Both the position numbers and the translations under genes were made by a program. Shown in pieces: positions 1 through 44,832 of a stretch of 46,054 nt of DNA; within the stretch, counting starts at the first letter, position 1; each line of letters starts with the position of its first letter. The stretch comes from Escherichia virus ECH1, in sequence record MN164484.2. One strand, 5' to 3'. The notes beneath the pieces were generated by a model. It had not been told where the DNA came from and searched no databases. It worked only from the letters and a program-made list of their open reading frames with translations.

Positions 1-248
1 TGAACTCTTTCTTTATATGCAAACTTGAAACAGGCGATTCTCATATGTGTGTGATGCATTCGATTGAATAAGTCAATAGGTCAGAGAAAGAAAACGGGCA
101 ATTTACGCAACTTTTTGCAAATTCATCCTCGTCACAAGGTTACTAATTACTTTACTTATCGCGTGTAGATAATCTGCAATACTTACGCATATATCGCCAA
201 ATCACGCGCTGGTTACAAATAAATCCCTTATATATAAACAACTTAGAT

Positions 249-288
249 TTATTATTATTATTATTATATATATGTAACTATTGTAACC
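249..288. repeat. AT-rich block (TTA)n-TATATATAT followed by GTAAC-N5-GTAAC; second copy at 25878-25920
   Basis: Direct reading; about 80 percent identical to the block at 25878-25920; sits in the non-coding region upstream of the first plus-strand genes. Confidence 0.6.
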
Positions 289-527
289 ATGTCATCGGGC
301 ACGTTGATTCAAAATCCTATATTGCGCGCGACTTTTATTTATATATTAGCGGAAGGTATAGCACCACATTTAGGTCGGTTACAGCTGTCTACTCGGTTAC
401 ACCCGCAGGCATACAGGTGTCAGCAAAATATTTTGTGTACATTTTGAGTATACCGCTTGTCTACGCGTACTTGAGGTACTATAGTTATCTCACACCAAAG
501 AGAGGTGTCATTAAAAGGGTTATTTAA

Positions 528-1025
528 ATGCAAAAAGTTAGTTTGGGTGAAGTTGTACGTTACATGGTCAAGAAAGCTATCAATTCTGAGAGTGGTGAGT
601 TTGTGATTCCGGTAAGCTATATAGCCGCTCAGGTTTATGGTGCTGACCCAATCGTCATTAGCAAGGAAGACATGGAAAAAGGTGGCGTGTATGACATGAC
701 AAAATTAAAGTCTTCATACGTAGCGAACACATCCAGCAGAATGCCTGAGGTCATTGAGCGAGATTTTAGAGCTAAGATATCTTTTGTTGAAGAGCTTTAT
801 GATGATTCCTATCAGGATTGCGCCAAAATCACAATGGTTAAGGGTGCGGTAAGAAAAGGTTCACGCAAGGCATCCGACCGAATGAAAGAACAAAAGATTA
901 TTGAAGGATTCAGGGAGAAATTACTATCAGTGATGCCTGACCTAAGCCACCTGGAAGGTAATGACATAATCATAGCAGTTAACGCAATCAAGGCAATGAA
1001 AGAAATTATTAAGGAGATTAAATAA
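528..1025 (+). CDS. hypothetical early protein (165 aa)
   Basis: ORF with ATG start; preceded by a TATAGTTA -10-like element at 481-488; no recognisable motif. Confidence 0.5.
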   Translation: MQKVSLGEVVRYMVKKAINSESGEFVIPVSYIAAQVYGADPIVISKEDMEKGGVYDMTKLKSSYVANTSSRMPEVIERDFRAKISFVEELYDDSYQDCAKITMVKGAVRKGSRKASDRMKEQKIIEGFREKLLSVMPDLSHLEGNDIIIAVNAIKAMKEIIKEIK

Positions 1026-1309
1026 TGATCGACTTCAACTTTGAAGTAACAAATCTGAGCCACGAAGAGATTGCTGAAATCGCAGAGAAGAATGGCAAGC
1101 CAGTTGAGTTAATCGCCGCGAATTATAACGGAATGCGCTGGGCTTTTGAGAATGGATACGATAATGACAAGCTAGCTGAAATCGCCAAGGAAAAGATTGC
1201 TAGCAAGAAGAAGATCAAGCCGTGGTACGAGAAGCACACTCGCACTGAATGGGAGGAAGCTATGGAGTTGTGGCAGTTAATGAAGAAGCTAAACAAATTG
1301 GTAAAATAG
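1025..1309 (+). CDS. hypothetical protein (94 aa)
   Basis: ORF start overlaps the upstream stop (ATGA-type coupling); stop TAG lies inside the conserved motif at 1305. Confidence 0.5.
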   Translation: MIDFNFEVTNLSHEEIAEIAEKNGKPVELIAANYNGMRWAFENGYDNDKLAEIAKEKIASKKKIKPWYEKHTRTEWEEAMELWQLMKKLNKLVK

Positions 1310-1349
1310 CACTTTTTGTTAAAACTCCATGGAGGGAGTTTGGCATAAT
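1305..1349 (+). promoter_or_regulatory. conserved promoter-like cassette (variant AATAGCACTTTTTGTTAAA plus -10-like CATAAT)
   Basis: Member of the repeated motif family; followed by RBS GAGAGGG and a small ORF at 1380. Confidence 0.45.
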
Positions 1350-1379
1350 AGCTTCATTGAAATGAGAGAGGGATTCAAA

Positions 1380-1460
1380 ATGTACTACGACGTTATCGCT
1401 GTTTGCCTGGTTGCCATTGTTGCTATTGTTGCAATTGTTAAGATTACGGAGAAGAAGTAA
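1380..1460 (+). CDS. small hydrophobic peptide (26 aa, MYYDVIAVCLVAIVAIVAIVKITEKK)
   Basis: ATG with RBS GAGAGGG upstream; predicted single TM helix; too short for confident calling. Confidence 0.3.
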   Translation: MYYDVIAVCLVAIVAIVAIVKITEKK

Positions 1461-1588
1461 TGCATACCATACAGATTAACGATTTAATTAGCGATGCCTT
1501 ACCATGGATAATCTGGTCCCTGGGATTTATGATTGTGTATATGATTGCATCCTTCGCGGATGATGCTAAAGAGGAAATTAAAGAATGA
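1460..1588 (+). CDS. small membrane protein (42 aa)
   Basis: ATG overlaps the upstream stop (TAATG); hydrophobic core WIIWSLGFMIVYMIA; stop overlaps the next start. Confidence 0.3.
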   Translation: MHTIQINDLISDALPWIIWSLGFMIVYMIASFADDAKEEIKE

Positions 1589-1815
1589 TTACTATCAACC
1601 TTTCAGATAAACAAGCTGCCGAGCTTAAAGAGGCGATGTCTATAAAGAAAATTCGATACGGTCAGTTTGAACGGGCAGGAGTTATGAGGGAGGTGATTAA
1701 ACAGATCAACAACCAGCAGTTCGACGTAATTGACTTCGAGAGCTCTCGACAATACGAGGCGCTAAGCGTTAATGCTGCGTACCTGAATAGCTGGGATAAG
1801 GCGACTAAGAAATGA
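1585..1815 (+). CDS. hypothetical protein (76 aa)
   Basis: ORF with ATG, translationally coupled to neighbours. Confidence 0.45.
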   Translation: MITINLSDKQAAELKEAMSIKKIRYGQFERAGVMREVIKQINNQQFDVIDFESSRQYEALSVNAAYLNSWDKATKK

Positions 1816-1985: not shown

Positions 1986-2119
1986 TTTACATCCATACGT
2001 ACTATACAGGCAAGTTTAATAGCGTTAAGCATGTTCGCGTGCACGATAGCTACGATAGCGCAAAGGAGCAATGGCTAGTTCTAGGTGGTGACATTAATTC
2101 ATATAGAATCGCTGAATAG
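1982..2119 (+). CDS. hypothetical protein (45 aa)
   Basis: ATGA overlap with the upstream ORF; stop TAG embedded in the motif at 2115. Confidence 0.3.
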   Translation: MIYIHTYYTGKFNSVKHVRVHDSYDSAKEQWLVLGGDINSYRIAE

Positions 2120-2159
2120 CACGAATTGCTAAAACTGTATTGTGGTAATTTGATATAGT
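2115..2159 (+). promoter_or_regulatory. conserved promoter-like cassette (AATAGCACGAATTGCTAAA, 20 nt, TATAGT)
   Basis: Motif 2115-2133, -10-like TATAGT 2154-2159, leader CCATCAACAACGAGATGGAG, ATG at 2191. Confidence 0.55.
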
Positions 2160-4400: not shown

Positions 4401-5969
4401 ATGTCTTTAGTGTGGGAAGAAATGACCATTCAGGAAAAGATGGCCGTCAAGGCGATATCAGAGCATAGTTTTGAGGGCTTTTTAAGGTGTTGGTTTTCAA
4501 TAACACAAGGCGAGCGATACATCCCTAACTGGCATCACAAGTATCTTTGCCGAATTATCGACGAGATTATTGCCGGGGAGCGCAAGGACACTATCATCAA
4601 CATAGCGCCCGGTAGCGGTAAGACAGAGATCGCTTCAATCCATTTCCCAGCCTACTCAATGGTTAAGCTGAAGAAGGTGCGAAACCTCAATATATCTTTT
4701 GCCGACTCACTGGTAAAGCGCAACTCCAAGCGCGTGCGTGACCTTATCAAGTCACCAGAATTTCAGTCGCTTTGGCCTTGCAAGTTTGGCACGTGCAAGG
4801 ACGATGAGCTTCAGGTTCTTGATGAGAGCGGGAAGGTTAGGTTTGAGTCAATATCAAAGGCGGCGGGAGGTCAGATTACTGGCGCTCGTGGTGGCTATAT
4901 AACCGAAACATATAGCGGGGCCGTCTTATTAGATGATTTTGACAAGCCCGCAGATATGCTATCAGCAGTCTACCGAGCAAATAACCATGTAATGCTAAAA
5001 AACACAATTCGCTCCCGTCGTGCGAGTTCTGTAAAGGGAAAGGCAACGCCAATCATTTCGATACAGCAGCGATTGCACGTTAATGACTCAACCTGGTTCA
5101 TGATGGAAGGTGGGATGGGTATCGAATTCGATTTGATTAAGATACCAGCGTTGGTAACTGAGGATTACCTAGACACACTACCTGAATGGATTAAAGAACA
5201 GTTTGAAGAGGATGTCCTTAGTAGTGAATACATAGAGCGCGATGGAGTAAGGTATTACAGCTACTTCCCTAAAAAGGAGTCAGTCAATGACTTGGTTGCG
5301 ATGTGGGATAGTGACCCTTACACCTTCCTTAGTCAGTATCAACAAGAACCAGTAGCTCTAGGTGGCAACCTTATTAACGTAGATTGGTTCCAGCGCCTTA
5401 GCGACACGTTCAGACCTCCCGCTAAGTACGATTATAGATTTATAACTTGCGATACAGCTATGACTACAAAAAGTTATAGTGACTTCTCTGTCCTTCAATT
5501 GTGGGGTTATAAAGATGCTAAGATTTACCTTATTGACCAGCGCAGGGGGAAATGGGAAGCGCCCGAGTTAGAGGCAGAGTTAATCGATTTCGAGAAGAAA
5601 TCAAGGGCAACCAGTCAATCGGATGGTATCCTCCGAAAGATTATCATCGAGAAGAAAGCATCTGGAATCGGACTCATTCAATCAGCAAGTCGAGTCATGA
5701 GAACGCCAGTGGAACCTTATGTTCCTGATAATGACAAGTTAACAAGGGTGATGAGTGCGCTGCCACAGATTAAGGCTGGTAACGTAGTTCTTCCTGAGTC
5801 TGCGCCGTGGTTAAGCGGATTGCTTACTGAGATTGCGGCATTTACCGCTGACGACAGCCACAATCACGACGACCAAATTGATACCATGACAATGGCTATC
5901 AACCTGGTTCTGAACATTGCGGATGATCCTAAGGCGAGACTGATGCGCATAGCGGGAAAAATGAAATAG
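4401..5969 (+). CDS. terminase large subunit
   Basis: 522 aa; P-loop-like GSGKT near the N-terminus; C-terminal acidic nuclease-like motifs (DDFD, HNHDDQIDT); position before portal. Confidence 0.85.
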   Translation: MSLVWEEMTIQEKMAVKAISEHSFEGFLRCWFSITQGERYIPNWHHKYLCRIIDEIIAGERKDTIINIAPGSGKTEIASIHFPAYSMVKLKKVRNLNISFADSLVKRNSKRVRDLIKSPEFQSLWPCKFGTCKDDELQVLDESGKVRFESISKAAGGQITGARGGYITETYSGAVLLDDFDKPADMLSAVYRANNHVMLKNTIRSRRASSVKGKATPIISIQQRLHVNDSTWFMMEGGMGIEFDLIKIPALVTEDYLDTLPEWIKEQFEEDVLSSEYIERDGVRYYSYFPKKESVNDLVAMWDSDPYTFLSQYQQEPVALGGNLINVDWFQRLSDTFRPPAKYDYRFITCDTAMTTKSYSDFSVLQLWGYKDAKIYLIDQRRGKWEAPELEAELIDFEKKSRATSQSDGILRKIIIEKKASGIGLIQSASRVMRTPVEPYVPDNDKLTRVMSALPQIKAGNVVLPESAPWLSGLLTEIAAFTADDSHNHDDQIDTMTMAINLVLNIADDPKARLMRIAGKMK

Positions 5970-6009
5970 CACAAATTGCTAAACACTAAAGACACGGATG
6001 GCGTATAGT
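5965..6009 (+). promoter_or_regulatory. conserved promoter-like cassette (AATAGCACAAATTGCTAAA, 20 nt, TATAGT)
   Basis: Motif begins inside the terminase stop codon; TATAGT 6004-6009; leader CACACAAACGAGAGGAG; ATG at 6039. Confidence 0.55.
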
Positions 6010-6038
6010 TACTTCACACAAACGAGAGGAGAAAAAAG

Positions 6039-6370
6039 ATGAAGGCAGTATTTAAAGGTTATAAAAAAGCTGGTTGTTTGGAATTTACTATTGGTAAGAT
6101 TTATGAGCTATCAACGGCAACTGAGGCTTTCGGATTCTTAAAAGTGACTGATGACGATGGATTTAATGGAGTAATTATCCCAGGTGACACCTATGATTTC
6201 GAGGTGCTGATTCCAGATGAATTTATCAATAAAAAAAGCAATTTAAATATTACATTAATGGCGAAGTGGTTACTAAGACAAAGTTCGACGATACGCTATT
6301 GTGTGTTAAGGACTTTGAAAGAGATGGCATTGATACATCATCAATAAAGTTCGAGGTAAAATTCGAGTAA
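6039..6370 (+). CDS. moron, paralog of the 18912-19274 ORF; needs a -1 frame change at A7 run 6231-6237
   Basis: Frame 0 (6039-6347) gives the N-terminal part; the -1 frame from 6233 encodes KYYINGEVVTKTKFDDTLL...IKFEVKFE, matching the C-terminus of the 18912 ORF. Confidence 0.5.
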
Positions 6371-6391
6371 CCACAAAAGCTATGATAAACT

Positions 6392-6415
6392 AGCCCCTAC
6401 CTGGGGCTTTTTTAT
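6392..6415 (+). terminator. rho-independent terminator (AGCCCC-TACCT-GGGGCT plus T6) then ATTGGAGA RBS
   Basis: Hairpin plus T-run immediately upstream of the portal gene. Confidence 0.65.
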
Positions 6416-6427
6416 TGGAGAAATGCA

Positions 6428-7684
6428 ATGGTAAAAACAGACAGCTACGCCAACATCTTTCTTGGCGGCAGTGACGGTAGTGAGATTTACGGAAGTTTAC
6501 AGAATCAGGCGCCTACAATTCTGGCTTCGCTTTATGTGGATAATGCACTTGTGCGTCGAATTATTGACACAATCCCAGAAACAGCATTGGCGGCAGGGTT
6601 CCATATTGATGGTATTGATGACGAACCTGCGTTCTGGTCGCGCTGGGATGATCTTGAGATGACGCAGAATATCAACGATGCCTGGTCATGGGCTCGGTTG
6701 TTCGGTGGTGCGGCAATTGTCGCTATCGTTAAGGACAATAGAGCGCTAACAAGTCCAGTCAGAGAGGGTGCTGAACTTGAAACGGTTCGTGTTTACGACC
6801 GCACGCAAGTGAAAGTGCAAAATCGCGAAGAGAATCCACGTAACGCACGCTTTGGTAAGCCTCTGACGTATCGCATCACCACTAACGAAAGCGATATGTT
6901 CTACGACGTGCACTACAGTCGCATTCACATTATCGATGGCGAGCGTGTACCTAACGCAATGCGTCGGCAAAATGATGGCTGGGGCCGTAGCGTTCTATCC
7001 AGTGACATTCTTGACTCAATTAAGGATTACACAAACTGCGAGCGACTCGCCACGCAATTACTTAGACGTAAACAGCAGGCGGTATGGAAGGCGAAAGGTC
7101 TGGCTGAGTTATGTGATGATAGCGAAGGGTTTGGCGCTGCAAGATTACGACTTGCGCAGGTTGACAACAATAGCGGCGTAGGTCAGGCGATTGGTATTGA
7201 TGCCGAATCTGAAGAGTATAGCGTTCTAAACTCTGACATTGGTGGGATTGATGCGTTCCTGGACAAGAAGTTTGACAGAATCGTAGCACTGAGCGGTATC
7301 CATGAAATCATCCTCAAGAACAAGAACGTTGGTGGCTTATCATCCAGTCAGAATACGGCGCTTGAGACATTCCACAAGCTGATTGACCGTAAGCGCAACG
7401 CTGAACTACTGCCCATTCTTGAGTTCTTAATACCGTTCATCGTAAACGCAGAAGAATGGTCAGTTGAGTTTAGCCCTCTAGCCCATGAGTCAAGCAAGGA
7501 TAAAGCGGAGGTTCTGGAGAAGAGCGTAAACAGCATCGCAGCACTAATTGCAGCCGGAGCTATGGATATCAACGAGGCACGTGATACACTACGCACTATC
7601 GCACCAGAGATTAAGATTGGTGATAATGATATTCAGACCGAGTACTCGGAGTTAATTACAGAGACGGAGGTTGTAATTGCGTAA
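6428..7684 (+). CDS. portal protein (putative)
   Basis: 418 aa, immediately downstream of the terminase large subunit; size and position. Confidence 0.75.
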   Translation: MVKTDSYANIFLGGSDGSEIYGSLQNQAPTILASLYVDNALVRRIIDTIPETALAAGFHIDGIDDEPAFWSRWDDLEMTQNINDAWSWARLFGGAAIVAIVKDNRALTSPVREGAELETVRVYDRTQVKVQNREENPRNARFGKPLTYRITTNESDMFYDVHYSRIHIIDGERVPNAMRRQNDGWGRSVLSSDILDSIKDYTNCERLATQLLRRKQQAVWKAKGLAELCDDSEGFGAARLRLAQVDNNSGVGQAIGIDAESEEYSVLNSDIGGIDAFLDKKFDRIVALSGIHEIILKNKNVGGLSSSQNTALETFHKLIDRKRNAELLPILEFLIPFIVNAEEWSVEFSPLAHESSKDKAEVLEKSVNSIAALIAAGAMDINEARDTLRTIAPEIKIGDNDIQTEYSELITETEVVIA

Positions 7685-13124: not shown

Positions 13125-13169
13125 GATAGCACTTTTTGTTAAAGACTAAAAATCAAAATGCTGTATAGT
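13125..13169 (+). promoter_or_regulatory. conserved promoter-like cassette (GATAGCACTTTTTGTTAAA, 20 nt, TATAGT)
   Basis: Motif 13125-13143; TATAGT 13164-13169; leader ATCATCGAAACGAAATGAG; ATG 13202. Confidence 0.5.
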
Positions 13170-13201
13170 TAAATCATCGAAACGAAATGAGAAATTAAGA
13201 A

Positions 13202-13468
13202 ATGAATAGTAAGTTAGAAGTATTATCCGCACTTCGCGGCCCTATTTGTGTAGCTGCGCTGGTTGCCTTTTATGCAGCAGTTCAGATTATCAACCCAACA
13301 AGAGCGGAAACAGCAAACTCTGACGCGGCAAAATACAATTCGGTTTTCTCTGAGCACAAGGCAATCTGCGAGAAGGCTTCTGGTAGCAAGATTGAGCAGG
13401 TTCTGAAGTATGGCAAGGAAATCTGCGTAGATATCGCGCACGACATTGCAAAAGAAAGCACTAAGTAA
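13202..13468 (+). CDS. moron: small secreted/membrane protein (88 aa, four Cys)
   Basis: N-terminal hydrophobic segment ICVAALVAFYAAVQII; own promoter-like cassette; sits between tail tube and chaperone genes. Confidence 0.45.
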   Translation: MNSKLEVLSALRGPICVAALVAFYAAVQIINPTRAETANSDAAKYNSVFSEHKAICEKASGSKIEQVLKYGKEICVDIAHDIAKESTK

Positions 13469-17200: not shown

Positions 17201-17703
17201 ATGTTAAAAGCATCAGGTGATAAACTGAAGTGGAATGATATCCCTGAGTATAGAGATTTTGTCCTTTATTGGAAGATTTCAACAAGCAACATATCAAGAA
17301 AAAAGATTGGTGATGTTGCGGGTAATCAAATGAATGATGGATACATAATGGTTCAGGCATTAAACAAAAGAATGCTTGCTCATAGGGTTGTTTGGGAAAT
17401 GCATAATGGCAGTATAACTAATGGCATGCATATAGACCATTTAAACCACATAAGGAATGACAACAGGATAGAAAACCTAAGACTGGTGTCAAGAACAGAA
17501 AACAACAGGAATAAATCAGTCAAAAGTAAACAAAACAGGTGTTTCAGGAGTTACATTAAAAGATGGGCTATTTCAGGTTTCGATAGGTGGAGAAAAAAAC
17601 AAGACTTACATAGGAAGGTTCTACACACTGGATCAGGCTACAGCAGCAAGGAAATCCGCAGAATTTCAACTATGTTACCACAATTATCATGGGGGATTTA
17701 ACT
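17201..17703 (+). CDS. HNH-AP2 homing endonuclease, frame-disrupted (HNH in one frame, AP2 domain in the +1 frame from about 17530)
   Basis: HNH motif HRVVWEMHNG...IDHLNH...NRIENLRLVSRTENN; alternate-frame AP2-like NKTGVSGVTLKDGLFQVSIGGEKNKTYIGRFYTLDQATAARKSAE; paralog of 39194-39688. Confidence 0.6.
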
Positions 17704-17704
17704 G

Positions 17705-18052
17705 ATGGCTATTGATACTTTTAACTCGTGCACGCAAATACAGGGTGGATCCAGCTCATTCAGCAACACGAACAACCTGCGACTTGTTAGCTTCGGAAAT
17801 GGTTTTGAGCAAAGAGGAACTGGTGGTTATCGCACCACCCTGAGCGCATACTCACTGACATACACCAACAAGGATTGGAGAGATGTTGACTTTTGTTTAA
17901 ACCACATCATTACCCCGTTCTTCTGGACTACGCCGCAGGGTGACACATCCATGTTCGTAATTCAGCAGGATAGCATTAGCGTTACACCACTCAGCGAGGA
18001 AGTTCAGACTGTAAACATGCAATTCGTGGAAGTCTTTAGCTCAATGCGTTAA
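17705..18052 (+). CDS. minor tail protein (lambda gpM-like)
   Basis: 115 aa, in the M position before the L, K, I, J series. Confidence 0.65.
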   Translation: MAIDTFNSCTQIQGGSSSFSNTNNLRLVSFGNGFEQRGTGGYRTTLSAYSLTYTNKDWRDVDFCLNHIITPFFWTTPQGDTSMFVIQQDSISVTPLSEEVQTVNMQFVEVFSSMR

Positions 18053-18056
18053 ACTA

Positions 18057-18077
18057 AGCCCCTTAGGGGCTTTTTTA
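18057..18077 (+). terminator. rho-independent terminator (AGCCCC-TTA-GGGGCT plus T6) then ATTGGAGA RBS
   Basis: Hairpin plus T-run between M and L. Confidence 0.65.
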
Positions 18078-18089
18078 TTGGAGAATAAT

Positions 18090-18845
18090 ATGCTGAGTCC
18101 TAAGTTTCAGAATCAGTTGCATAGCCTTTTCCCAGGCGAGATTGTGACACTAATTCAGGTTCACGGGACCTCATTCGGAAGTCTCGTTTACAACTTCCAT
18201 AATGAGAACATATCTTACACACCTGAAGAAATCCTGCTGGCCCAACTGAATGGCGATCCACTACCAGAGAAAACCATCACCTTCCGCGGCGAAGAGTATG
18301 GCCCAAGACCATTTGGTATCTCTGGTATCAATATGACTTCTGACGGCAAGGCTAACAAGGTCACGTTAACGGTATCAAACGTGGACCAGCGCATTAGCGC
18401 ATTGATTCGCACATATAACGGACTTGTTAAGGCAAAGGTTACTATCTGGATCACCACGCGCGATAACATCAATGAAGACGGAAGCATTGCTGACGGGGAC
18501 TATCGCAGATTTGTTTACTTCATTGAGCGACCAAAGCAAGTTGATTACAAAACCGCATCATTTGAGCTAAGCAGCCCGATGGATATGGACGGAATTTATA
18601 TTCCTGCACGTCTTGTTCAGTCCGTTTGCTATTGGTCGTCAAGGGGGTGGTATCGTAGCGGTAATGGTTGCGACTATGCTGGCAATCGTTATTTTGACAA
18701 GGATGACAATCCAGTGTCAGACCCTTCACTTGACTTCTGCGCCGGAACGGTAAATAGCTGTAAGATTAGGTTTGGTGAGAATAATCAGATTTCATTTGGT
18801 GGGTGCGCAGCAGCGAGCCTTCAAGCTAAAGCTAATCAGAGTTAA
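18090..18845 (+). CDS. minor tail protein (lambda gpL-like)
   Basis: ATG 18090 with RBS GGAG; Cys-rich C-terminus (CYWSS...CDYAG...C...C) typical of gpL. Confidence 0.7.
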   Translation: MLSPKFQNQLHSLFPGEIVTLIQVHGTSFGSLVYNFHNENISYTPEEILLAQLNGDPLPEKTITFRGEEYGPRPFGISGINMTSDGKANKVTLTVSNVDQRISALIRTYNGLVKAKVTIWITTRDNINEDGSIADGDYRRFVYFIERPKQVDYKTASFELSSPMDMDGIYIPARLVQSVCYWSSRGWYRSGNGCDYAGNRYFDKDDNPVSDPSLDFCAGTVNSCKIRFGENNQISFGGCAAASLQAKANQS

Positions 18846-18889
18846 ATAGCACGAATTGCTAAAGACGATTTAAAAAGATGGGGTATAGT
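18845..18889 (+). promoter_or_regulatory. conserved promoter-like cassette (AATAGCACGAATTGCTAAA, 20 nt, TATAGT)
   Basis: Motif 18845-18863; TATAGT 18884-18889; leader CCCAATCGAAACGAGAGGAG; ATG 18912. Confidence 0.55.
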
Positions 18890-18911
18890 TACCCAATCGA
18901 AACGAGAGGAG

Positions 18912-19274
18912 ATGAAAAAAATGTTCCAAATTAAATTTAACGGATACAAAAAAGACAAAGAAGAGTGCGCTGGTTTGTTTTTCATTGGCCACAATTACCC
19001 CTGCAGTGTTGTTGACTCAAACAGACACTATCAGACGCAGGATGAGAATGGCAATATTGTAAAGTTTAAAAGTATTTTCCGTGATGCTTGTTACGACTTT
19101 TCAAGAATTGATACTCAGAGCAAGGTATTAGACGAGCATGATAACAAGATGAAATATCGAATGAATGGTGTTGATGTCACTAAGTCATTCTTTGATGATA
19201 AGCTACTGGAAGTTGAGATGCTTAAATCAATAGATGTTTCAGTATTTATAGATTTTGAGGTTTATTTTGAATAA
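18912..19274 (+). CDS. moron, paralog of 6039-6370 (120 aa)
   Basis: Own promoter-like cassette and terminator; N-terminus FNGYKK and C-terminus IDFEVYFE match the 6039 gene. Confidence 0.5.
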   Translation: MKKMFQIKFNGYKKDKEECAGLFFIGHNYPCSVVDSNRHYQTQDENGNIVKFKSIFRDACYDFSRIDTQSKVLDEHDNKMKYRMNGVDVTKSFFDDKLLEVEMLKSIDVSVFIDFEVYFE

Positions 19275-19292
19275 ACAAAATTAGTGTTAAAC

Positions 19293-19320
19293 TAGGTCAA
19301 TCGAAAGGTTGGCCTTTTTT
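19293..19320 (+). terminator. terminator-like hairpin plus T6 followed by ATTGGAGA RBS
   Basis: AGGTCAA...TTGGCCT stem with T-run. Confidence 0.5.
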
Positions 19321-19332
19321 ATTGGAGATAAA

Positions 19333-20091
19333 ATGTTAACACCAAAGGTTAAGCTGGAAATCTTCCAGCACGCAAAAGAAATTTACCCGCATGAGTGCTG
19401 CGGAGTTGTAACGCAGAAGGGTCGGGCGCAGAAATATCACAGAATCACTAACGCCAGCAAAGACCCCGAGAACGAGTTCATTCTTGATTCAAACGAGTAT
19501 GCAGATGTTCTCTTTGAATTGGCTCACAATGAATCTATTGTTTACGTAGTTCACTCTCACACAGGCGACGGAGCAACAACAAGGCCAAGTCCTGCGGATA
19601 TTTGTAGCTGCAATGAGTGCGAGATTCCGTATGTTATCGTAAGTATCCCAGAGGGAGATATGCGGATTCTTGAGCCGTCAACCATGCCTCTGATTGGTCG
19701 CCCGTGGGGGCTTGGTAGCTTTGATTGCTGGGAGATGGTTATGTCGTTTCACAAGAAATACGGAGTAAAACTGAATGACTACCGCGTTAATTACCCGTGG
19801 TGGGAGAAGCGGTACAATGAAAATATCTATGACGACAACTGGGTTGAGGAAGGATTTGAGCTGGTGAAAACTTCAGATATTCCCATTGGCTCAATGATTA
19901 TGATGCAAGTGCAAAGCGAGGTGACAAACCACGCTGGAATCTATATTGGCAATAACAGATTCATCCACCATCTATATGGTAAAATGAGTTCAGTAGATAT
20001 CTATTCCGATTACTGGCGCGAGCGCACGGTGCGAATTGTTCGCCATAAGGATTTACCAGAGGATGTAATTTATGACCCAGAAACTGATTGA
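19333..20091 (+). CDS. tail assembly protein (lambda gpK-like, JAB/MPN plus NlpC/P60 features)
   Basis: HECCG and HSHTGDG (JAMM-like) motifs; C-terminal Cys/His segment FDCWEM...HAGIY...FIHH. Confidence 0.75.
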   Translation: MLTPKVKLEIFQHAKEIYPHECCGVVTQKGRAQKYHRITNASKDPENEFILDSNEYADVLFELAHNESIVYVVHSHTGDGATTRPSPADICSCNECEIPYVIVSIPEGDMRILEPSTMPLIGRPWGLGSFDCWEMVMSFHKKYGVKLNDYRVNYPWWEKRYNENIYDDNWVEEGFELVKTSDIPIGSMIMMQVQSEVTNHAGIYIGNNRFIHHLYGKMSSVDIYSDYWRERTVRIVRHKDLPEDVIYDPETD

Positions 20092-27583: not shown

Positions 27584-27626
27584 ATAGCACGAATTGCTAA
27601 AAAAAATGGGATATCTGAGGTATAGT
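27583..27626 (+). promoter_or_regulatory. conserved promoter-like cassette (AATAGCACGAATTGCTAAA, 19 nt, TATAGT)
   Basis: Motif begins in the exonuclease stop codon; TATAGT 27621-27626; leader CCCATCAACAGCAAACGAGG. Confidence 0.55.
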
Positions 27627-35746: not shown

Positions 35747-36166
35747 ATGAAGATTACAGATAAAGAAGATTACATTGAGTTTTACCCGGGTGCTGTAAAA
35801 TCATGTCCAAAGGAGGATGACGAACAAATCTTTTGCTCTGATTGGGTTAAGTACCATTATCCGCAGATTGTTTACTGGCACACGATTAATGAAAATAAGA
35901 AGACCATAGGGCAAGCAAGAAAAGACCAGGCGAAAGGACTCCTTAAGGGCGTATCAGACTGCTTATTCCTGATACCTGAATCAATGCGAGGCAAATACCC
36001 TTTTGGAGCCATAGAGCTAAAGAGGGCAGGAAAAACTCAAGCAAGCCCTGTTAGCGATGAACAAAAGGTTTTCTTAAAAAGCGTAAGGGAATCAGGCGGT
36101 TTCTCTGCTGTAGCCTACGGTCGCGAAGGTTTTCTTGCAGCATTCAAAGAAATGATTTCAAAATAG
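35747..36166 (+). CDS. VRR-NUC domain nuclease
   Basis: GVSDCLFLIPE...AIELKRAG resembles the D-x(n)-E-x-K VRR-NUC signature. Confidence 0.55.
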   Translation: MKITDKEDYIEFYPGAVKSCPKEDDEQIFCSDWVKYHYPQIVYWHTINENKKTIGQARKDQAKGLLKGVSDCLFLIPESMRGKYPFGAIELKRAGKTQASPVSDEQKVFLKSVRESGGFSAVAYGREGFLAAFKEMISK

Positions 36167-36206
36167 CACGAATTGCTAAAGAAGATTTTAAAAGATGGGG
36201 TATAGT
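36162..36206 (+). promoter_or_regulatory. conserved promoter-like cassette (AATAGCACGAATTGCTAAA, 20 nt, TATAGT)
   Basis: Motif begins in the VRR-NUC stop; TATAGT 36201-36206; leader CTCCATCGAAACGAAACG. Confidence 0.55.
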
Positions 36207-44787: not shown

Positions 44788-44832
44788 ATAATACCGTATC
44801 TCACATAAATGCTTTTAGCAATTCGTGCTATT
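44788..44832 (-). promoter_or_regulatory. conserved promoter-like cassette on the minus strand (AATAGCACGAATTGCTAAA, TATTAT)
   Basis: Leader TCCATCGAGACGGGAGATGAG; ATG at 44761. Confidence 0.5.

Follow-up and report, generated by a model that had tools for sequence, protein, structure and literature searches.

Morons of lambdoid phages, in the concept of Juhala and Hendrix, are promoter-gene-terminator units lying between genes of the late operon. Among the small proteins of the Drexlerviridae, Gp54 of phage Bas11 (PDB 9AXB) is a stand-alone SH3-like protein that is sensed by CapRel(SJ46), and that is non-essential and lost under CapRel(SJ46) pressure (PMC11578894). As regards homopolymeric runs, neither slippage nor rescue is detected with E. 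coli RNA polymerase on fewer than eight A (PMC6260861), and selection against slippage in bacteria typically starts at nine (PMC1088944). Escherichia virus ECH1, a T1-like coliphage of the genus Guelphvirus, carries in its structural operon two cassettes of the moron type whose ORFs encode members of one protein family, and in the copy between the large terminase (TerL) and portal genes the coding frame changes by -1 at a run of seven A that encodes the linker between two predicted domains. Our preferred reading, which we hold at a probability of roughly 0.6, is that this run arose by a genuine, non-programmed contraction from A8 to A7 which leaves the copy with an N-domain-only product.

The window, by which we mean the whole stretch of 46,054 nucleotides of ECH1 DNA that was analysed, is colinear with Escherichia phage vB_EcoS_ACG-M12 (JN986845; Drexlerviridae, Braunvirinae, Guelphvirus), from which ECH1 is 2.3% diverged. 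The motif TAGCACNAATTGCTAAA stands upstream of both ORFs as exact copies (5967-5983 and 18847-18863) and occurs 19 times in the window against an expectation of 0.69, a count reached by none of 100 shuffles. Its sites lie on both strands, upstream of early, replication and structural-region genes, and when aligned have in common a downstream -10-like hexamer and a leader; a literature search on the motif sequence found nothing relevant. In both cassettes (Table 1) TATAGT is followed by this conserved leader and then by a strong Shine-Dalgarno (SD) sequence, with a spacing of TAAACA-18-TATAGT in the TerL/portal cassette, where the first three bases of the motif are also the stop codon of TerL. 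A predicted intrinsic terminator, consisting of a hairpin and a T-run, lies 3' of each ORF, and the annotation of the relative EC3a has a terminator at the position matching 6392-6414. Beyond this first hairpin and T-run TTATTGGAGA supplies the SD of the portal gene, and the same TTATTGGAGA stands between the 19294-19321 terminator and the gpK start at 19333. Pfam identifies the flanks of the first cassette as large terminase (4401-5969) and portal (6428-7684), and assigns those of the second to a gpM-like protein (17705-18052), gpL (18090-18845) and gpK (19333-20091; JAB and NlpC/P60). The GC content of the cassettes is 36.0% and 33.9% respectively, compared with 44.9-47.9% in the flanking genes (45-46% for L and K) and 43.6% in the genome.

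Only the second cassette can be seen to interrupt neighbours that adjoin in a relative: EC3a has 10 bp between the gpL stop and the gpK start, precisely where the window has 487 bp. At the TerL/portal junction no empty site was found, all relatives examined having a gene there. Because both units are low-GC promoter-ORF-terminator cassettes, the promoters being predicted ones, and because the L/K junction of EC3a is empty, moron is at the level of sequence a fair label for both. The earlier note had placed ORFs at 6039 and 18912, each with its own motif promoter and terminator, at the terminase/portal and L/K junctions of the late operon, and this description stands apart from the second start: GAGGAG (18906-18911) touches the ATG at 18912 but is properly spaced, by 9 nt, from the in-frame ATG at 18921, so that the latter is most likely the start, and it is also where the GenBank annotation begins the gene. 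An ORF at 13202 was considered as a third paralog and rejected since, despite having the same promoter and leader, it encodes an unrelated protein of 88 aa.

Table 1. Elements of the two cassettes, with their positions in the window, and split alleles of the family found elsewhere.
Element	Positions	Strand	Remarks
TerL/portal: 17-nt promoter-associated motif TAGCACAAATTGCTAAA	5967..5983	+	exact match to the phage-wide motif
TerL/portal: -10-like hexamer TATAGT	6004..6009	+	20 nt 3' of the 17-nt motif; consensus match only
TerL/portal: Shine-Dalgarno GAGGAG	6026..6031	+	7 nt upstream of ATG 6039
TerL/portal: frame-0 ORF, 102 aa	6039..6347	+	N-domain, linker and 36-aa out-of-frame tail beyond residue 66
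TerL/portal: predicted N-domain, SH3-like five-stranded beta-barrel, residues 1-57	6039..6209	+	
TerL/portal: A7 run, frame-change site in interdomain linker (N-K-K-K)	6231..6237	+	in-phase codons AAA AAA A/GC
TerL/portal: -1 frame continuation, linker end and predicted C-domain (beta-beta-alpha-beta)	6236..6370	+	44 codons and stop
TerL/portal: intrinsic-terminator-like hairpin AGCCCCTACCTGGGGCT and T-run	6392..6414	+	hairpin itself 6392-6408
gpL/gpK: second cassette, 487 bp	18846..19332	+	stands in place of the 10-bp L/K spacer of EC3a
gpL/gpK: promoter-associated motif TAGCACGAATTGCTAAA	18847..18863	+	exact match
gpL/gpK: -10-like TATAGT	18884..18889	+	20 nt beyond the 17-nt motif
gpL/gpK: intact paralog, 117 aa	18921..19274	+	likely start ATG 18921; ATG 18912 in frame
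gpL/gpK: terminator-like hairpin and T-run	19294..19321	+	hairpin itself 19294-19315
Split allele GAT-A7-CC			for an implied A6; C-domain in +1 frame; two ENA samples
Split allele GAT-A5-CC			for A6; -1 frame; three contigs, including one ENA SPAdes and one Logan assembly
Split allele GT-A5-TCC			for A6; -1 frame; three Logan contigs
Split allele AATAATTAAAACC			T/A-run change; stop and -1 frame; two ENA samples

From 6236 the -1 frame of the TerL/portal copy reads KQFKYYINGEVVTKTKFDDTLLCVKDFERDGIDTSSIKFEVKFE and then a stop codon ending at 6370, and the +1 frame beyond the A7 run is full of stops. In tblastn searches EC3a gp18 aligns in two parts, residues 1-69 with frame 1 (6039-6245) and residues 66-110 with the shifted frame (6233-6367), which confines the switch of frame to 6233-6245; residues 76-117 of the L/K paralog also align in the shifted frame, with 6239-6367 (E 1e-5, 50% identity). 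One A added to the 6039 ORF gives a protein of 110 aa that is 98% identical to EC3a gp18, itself a single uninterrupted ORF with A8 at the position of the run. Compared with the 117-aa product of 18921-19274, the reconstituted 110-aa protein is 38% identical from end to end (E 2e-7), and both match the phrog_14592 profile over their full lengths (E 1.8e-39 for residues 1-110 and 1.3e-39 for residues 1-117). The two ORFs are true paralogs. The earlier note had proposed this paralogy, with pairwise alignment of the products as the check and a missing alignment as the outcome against it, and the alignment obtained is significant; the note was also right to put the C-terminal homology of the 6039 copy in the -1 frame, although the continuation begins inside the run, at 6236, and not after it.

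The codons of the C-part differ between the window and EC3a at 11 places, nine of them synonymous and two non-synonymous in the -1 frame; read in frame 0, the same 11 differences are one synonymous and ten non-synonymous. The -1 frame is therefore the historically selected coding frame. The frame-0 tail is unconserved, since in phage phiEB49 a T-to-A change stops it after two residues to give a product of 68 aa, and no convincing start was found for the C-part of the 6039 copy on its own. WEL95454.1 (Escherichia virus ECH1) has exactly the sequence encoded by 6039-6347 in frame 0. There is almost no divergence 3' of the run, too little to gauge decay of the C-part.

AlphaFold models of the two proteins (pLDDT 88 and 81) present the same order of secondary structure: an N-terminal barrel of five strands, a linker modelled at low confidence and, at the C-terminus, a beta-beta-alpha-beta unit. 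In the 6039 protein the pLDDT falls below 50 at residues 61-64, in the Lys-rich and presumably flexible linker that the A-run encodes, while the linker of the paralog, predicted to be disordered at residues 67-75, is encoded without a long A-run. The modelled N-domain is an SH3-like five-stranded small barrel, to which the predicted structure of the 68-aa product of phiEB49 corresponds with a TM-score of 0.88. Neither protein is matched by a Pfam, NCBIfam or PADLOC family; Foldseek against the PDB gave no match below E 0.2, a profile search of PDB sequences gave spurious matches only (the best being VPS26 at E 0.02), and a fold search of BFVD returned family members and generic small barrels only. 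The family is small, with 43 profile matches in 1.84 billion representative proteins, and in deposited phage genomes it occurs mainly in the Drexlerviridae and in a few Vequintavirinae, where the homolog is an intact gene adjoining DNA ligase. An 'x2' annotation in the Vequintavirinae might suggest a split gene there; this was ruled out, since the two genes there overlap by 4 nt and the homolog is uninterrupted.

The name 'virion structural protein' attached to the family originates from PHROGs and RefSeq, and no experimental support for it was found. PHROG 14592, which both ECH1 proteins match from end to end, differs in this label from the evidence: the virion proteomic studies of T1-like phages consulted here list no member-like protein (PMC4070988, PMC3496638), no solved structure is significantly matched, and the neighbourhood of the Vequintavirinae homologs is one of DNA metabolism. 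The family proteins are probably soluble, cytoplasmic, non-structural accessory proteins, given their early-type promoter, variable presence, non-structural context elsewhere, acidic pI (4.9-5.2) and negative hydropathy (GRAVY -0.2 to -0.5). Superinfection exclusion or anti-defence, which the earlier note named as common among such accessory genes, would be candidate roles.

The linker is intact in most of the family, about 29 of the 43 profile matches being full-length single ORFs, as are the homologs of 2725-N35 and Rtp. In SU57, G8 and PCEc3 the run is interrupted, reading AAAGAAA(A/G)G, and further homologs have other sequences at this place. The A7 allele is present in four GenBank genomes (ECH1, ACG-M12, SCS31 and phiEB49) and was found nowhere else in IMG/VR, in a scan of JGI metagenomes or in a collection of 15 billion proteins. 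Searched for further A7 or A8 copies, IMG/VR gave those of phiEB49 and EC3a only, a peptide scan of IMG/VR gave five loci, and the single match in the JGI metagenomes was an unrelated chance match. A C-part of the ACG-M12 type joined to A8 was never seen.

The profile search also returned five N-domain-only ORFs besides that of the window type, and for four of these the contigs, all from Illumina metagenome assemblies, show a TerL-gene-portal locus in which the gene is split in the linker by a net change of one nucleotide (Table 1). For three of the four the change falls within an A-run. Each allele is represented by two or three contigs, with two distinct samples documented for three of them, and in all four the C-domain can be read without interruption as far as the native stop, which closely precedes the conserved terminator. 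The split alleles come from the metagenomes ERZ28620828, ERZ27280701, ERZ14232175, SRR9113725, ERZ27260050, ERZ27260047 and SRR27750993. With the window included, this makes five linker frameshift alleles among about 34 family clusters, four of them net -1 and one +1, differing in run length (A4-A7), in position and in direction. On the evidence of these assemblies, single-base linker frameshifts are a real and recurrent polymorphism of the family. No frameshift was seen among the family alleles at the A6 run of codons 8-10 (6063-6068), where a shift would abolish the N-domain. This absence hints, with counts that are small and dependent on ORF calling, that the N-domain is the constantly selected part; mutational bias alone could yield a pattern of frameshifts restricted to the linker. 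The C-parts of two split alleles differ by 14 non-synonymous and one synonymous changes in a hand count, with no sign of purifying selection.

Since four alleles from outside the window, assembled from Illumina reads, are likewise split by net one-nucleotide indels in the linker, a genuine contraction is favoured, and it is a better reading of the ECH1 locus than a homopolymer error. Replication slippage would have deleted one A in the poly-A tract of the 6039 copy, and the A7 allele would then have been inherited by descent in a recombining tract of about 700 bp common to ECH1, ACG-M12 and the distantly related phiEB49. This last phage, which belongs to a different subfamily and comes from a different laboratory, shares 95-100% identity with the window over 6100-6800 and only 58-82% in TerL, a disparity implying that the A7 allele is one lineage moved by recombination. 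Translation from ATG 6039 would be expected to yield the N-domain followed by a meaningless tail (11.6 kDa in all), with the full-length protein of 12.6 kDa made at most in traces by spontaneous slippage, and the L/K paralog, intact in ECH1, ACG-M12 and SCS31, would supply the two-domain protein. We infer, rather than observe, that A7 is real in this stock, that expression follows this pattern and that the role is an accessory one outside the virion.

The best surviving alternative, although an unlikely one, is that the run is truly A8 and the 110-aa gene intact, with an under-call in the 454 data of ACG-M12, and perhaps of phiEB49, carried into later records. ACG-M12 was sequenced by 454 pyrosequencing, which is prone to miscalls in long homopolymers (PMC3347319), and the lesion is exactly one base in a would-be 8-mer with a perfectly intact frame downstream. 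EC3a, the sole de novo genome with a near-identical gene, has A8, and another database contig at the locus carries obvious frameshifts of the error type, one of them in TerL. The records of ECH1, ACG-M12 and SCS31 moreover have the same length of 46,054 bp, which is odd. SCS31 was sequenced on Illumina, and its use as confirmation of A7 was ruled out: it differs from ACG-M12 by 3058 substitutions, mostly at third positions, and by no indels, and contains multi-kb stretches with no difference at all, where ACG-M12 and EC3a are separated by 171 indel events. The SCS31 record thus looks reference-scaffolded to ACG-M12 and is not independent evidence. The same cannot readily be said of ECH1, which is separated from ACG-M12 by four small indels, one of them of 1 nt beside a T-run, and by 1060 substitutions that cover most of its length. 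This difference near a T-run indicates that indels were called in the ECH1 record, which looks like an independent sequence and no copy of the reference; a literature search found no description of its sequencing. Other 8-mers in ACG-M12 were called as 8, the same A7 was obtained for phiEB49 by a different laboratory, and the comparable linker frameshifts in Illumina assemblies of several samples are real ones. The earlier note had listed transcriptional slippage, ribosomal frameshifting, sequencing error and an inactivating mutation side by side; the recurrence in the four Illumina-assembled alleles favours the last of these, and the two programmed mechanisms lack support for the reasons given below.

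A further proposal, which we consider improbable, is a reversible contingency switch, in which a hypermutable A-tract of Lys codons toggles between a two-domain and an N-domain-only product and host factors, for instance a defence system sensing one of the forms, select the state. It would account for five independent linker frameshift alleles in both directions among the 34 or so clusters, for their each being a single lesion with the C-domain still open, and for the lack of any counterpart at the A6 run of codons 8-10, taken as equally long. The N-domain-only products, moreover, match stand-alone SH3-like proteins of the Drexlerviridae in size, and Gp54 of Bas11, dispensable and lost under CapRel(SJ46) pressure, is one such protein. 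However, nothing points to reversion or to mixed run lengths within a population, the counts carry the limits noted above, and an A-run is expected from ordinary use of AAA for Lys, with many intact alleles having an interrupted one. The two split C-parts compared above give no sign of purifying selection, and a mutation-selection balance at a hotspot fits the data equally well. We accordingly give little credence to the idea that the linker A-tract reversibly spreads the risk of a phage population over two kinds of host, those where the full-length protein is useful, for instance in countering one defence system, and those where it is detected or does damage. Should the recurrence of linker frameshifts that spare the N-domain nevertheless reflect selection and not biased mutation, a small accessory protein would seem to bring costs and benefits that depend on conditions, much as do phage proteins able to counter bacterial defences and also to trigger them.

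The sequence around the run offers little to a recoding mechanism. The zero frame is AAU AAA AAA AGC and has no slippery heptamer of the form X XXY YYZ in phase: of the two heptamers on offer, U AAA AAA gives a mismatch in the P site and A AAA AGC one in the A site. Immediately 3' of the run 19 nt are predicted to be unpaired and the nearest hairpin is weak (-8.9 kcal/mol, z -1.0); RNA folding 5' and 3' of the run gave no significant structure, and an Rfam search over 5900-6500 found nothing; the nearest SD-like sequence, GAGGUG, lies about 22 nt 5' of the run and is not suitably placed. For slippage during transcription the run of A7 is shorter than the at least eight A needed by the host polymerase, and the annotation of ACG-M12 contains no RNA polymerase of the phage. 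A programmed mechanism that sets the ratio of N-domain-only to full-length product as in dnaX or G/GT, be it -1 ribosomal frameshifting or an A added by RNA polymerase at A7, is thus very improbable. In its favour, an A-run allows tRNA-Lys to pair anew after a -1 step, the frame beyond the run is open as far as the native stop, and split arrangements recur in the family; against it, homologs are mostly uninterrupted, and the split alleles, varying in site, length and direction, have no common signal.

For annotation, ACG-M12_0016, its ECH1 and SCS31 counterparts and gp57 of phiEB49 are shortened versions of a two-domain protein of 110 aa and should be flagged as frameshifted, not listed as separate proteins; the label 'virion structural protein' is unsupported, and the second ORF probably starts at 18921. 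The frameshift in itself is ordinary, and its recurrence across the family is the mildly interesting part.

Set beside known systems, the 6039 copy resembles programmed -1 frameshifting, as at A AAA AAG of dnaX and in the tail chaperone G/GT, in its A-rich site, its -1 change and the N-terminally coincident short and long products that this would give; unlike in dnaX and G/GT, the shift in ECH1 is unconserved, lacks an in-phase heptamer and a stimulator, and varies in direction among alleles. It also resembles the homopolymer contingency loci and the 'saviour' slippage at poly-A frameshift mutations described for bacteria and endosymbionts (PMC1088944, PMC5009743), in that a variable repeat lies within the ORF: a coding poly-A tract differs by one base between near-identical genes (A7 and A8), both lengths being natural, and four further alleles vary in the same linker. 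Unlike in those loci, the tracts of this family are short (A4-A8), and reversibility and rescue are here hypothetical; a literature search on homopolymer phase variation in phages found nothing directly comparable. The cassettes themselves are like the morons of lambdoid phages, each carrying a promoter-like element and an intrinsic terminator of its own, each sitting exactly between two conserved structural genes at about 10 GC points below its neighbours, and the L/K copy being missing from the close relative EC3a. They differ in that the phage is virulent and T1-like rather than temperate, that the promoter motif belongs to the phage itself and recurs across its genome, also before early and replication genes, that one operon holds two paralogous copies, and that the TerL/portal copy is absent from no relative examined. 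The family presents a clean case of mobile low-GC cassettes within the structural operon of a virulent phage.

The 17-nt motif TAGCACNAATTGCTAAA, which contains the inverted repeat TAGCA-N5-TGCTA, occurs at 19 sites on the two strands of the window against 0.69 expected. At most sites a TATAGT/TATAAT-like hexamer lies ~20 nt after the motif, and most also present the conserved leader ATCGAAACGAG followed by a Shine-Dalgarno sequence. The motif looks like a general promoter or operator module of the phage; a literature search with its sequence returned no match. The same motif and leader as in the two moron cassettes are also found in a third promoter-ORF cassette (13127-13468; 38% GC), which has the major tail gene on one side and the tail chaperone genes on the other. 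Its ORF was considered as a further relative of the moron paralogs and rejected, the product being an unrelated protein with no match in Pfam or PADLOC. A second recurrent element, TTATTGGAGA, is identical after three terminator T-runs, where it provides the Shine-Dalgarno sequence for portal, gpL and gpK respectively, and this junction is a predicted reusable terminator/RBS module.

Coordinates of features in the window and in related records
Feature	Record	Position	Size	Remarks
17-nt motif, example sites	window	2117-2133, 5967-5983, 18847-18863, 27585-27601, 36164-36180; 44814-44830(-)		
Terminator T-run to TTATTGGAGA junctions	window	6409-6422, 18073-18082, 19316-19329		
Third-cassette ORF	window	13202-13468	88 aa	hydrophobic stretch at N-terminus
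HNH endonuclease ORF	window	17201-17701		between tape-measure and gpM genes
Terminase gene and moron homolog	L017 (GCA_002832705.1, MAUZ01000002.1)	1-1722		
Intact moron-family homologs	L013/L014 (Vequintavirinae phages A7_1, UPEC06)	601-939	about 112 aa	

At the start of the L/K paralog, ATGAAAAAAATG (18912-18923) holds a second A7 run flanked by two in-frame ATGs, and a length change in this run would shift which ATG stays in frame. In the split allele L029 the stop codon of the shifted N-terminal ORF overlaps an ATG of the C-terminal part (ATGA, 1003-1006), giving a 35-aa ORF of the same fragment type as P0059; this stop/start overlap is probably a coincidence.

ECH1 (the window), ACG-M12 and SCS31 each measure exactly 46,054 bp. 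ECH1 differs from ACG-M12 by four indels (+1, -2, +4 and -3) that sum to zero, three of them grouped in or near the HNH endonuclease ORF; the relative EC3a has no gene at the corresponding position. Across the whole record, SCS31 (GenBank ON081052) shows 3058 substitutions and 0 indels relative to ACG-M12, with identical length and annotation coordinates and several multi-kb stretches of zero difference; the record is apparently a consensus scaffolded on a reference and filled in from it. The L017 record, where the terminase is broken up over two ORFs and a C-run in the N-domain of the moron homolog has one extra C, is probably an error-prone assembly.

Intact homologs also occur in A7_1 and UPEC06, which are myoviruses of roughly 140 kb. 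There the gene lies directly upstream of DNA ligase, amid small early-type genes, a context very unlike the structural operon that houses the family in Drexlerviridae.
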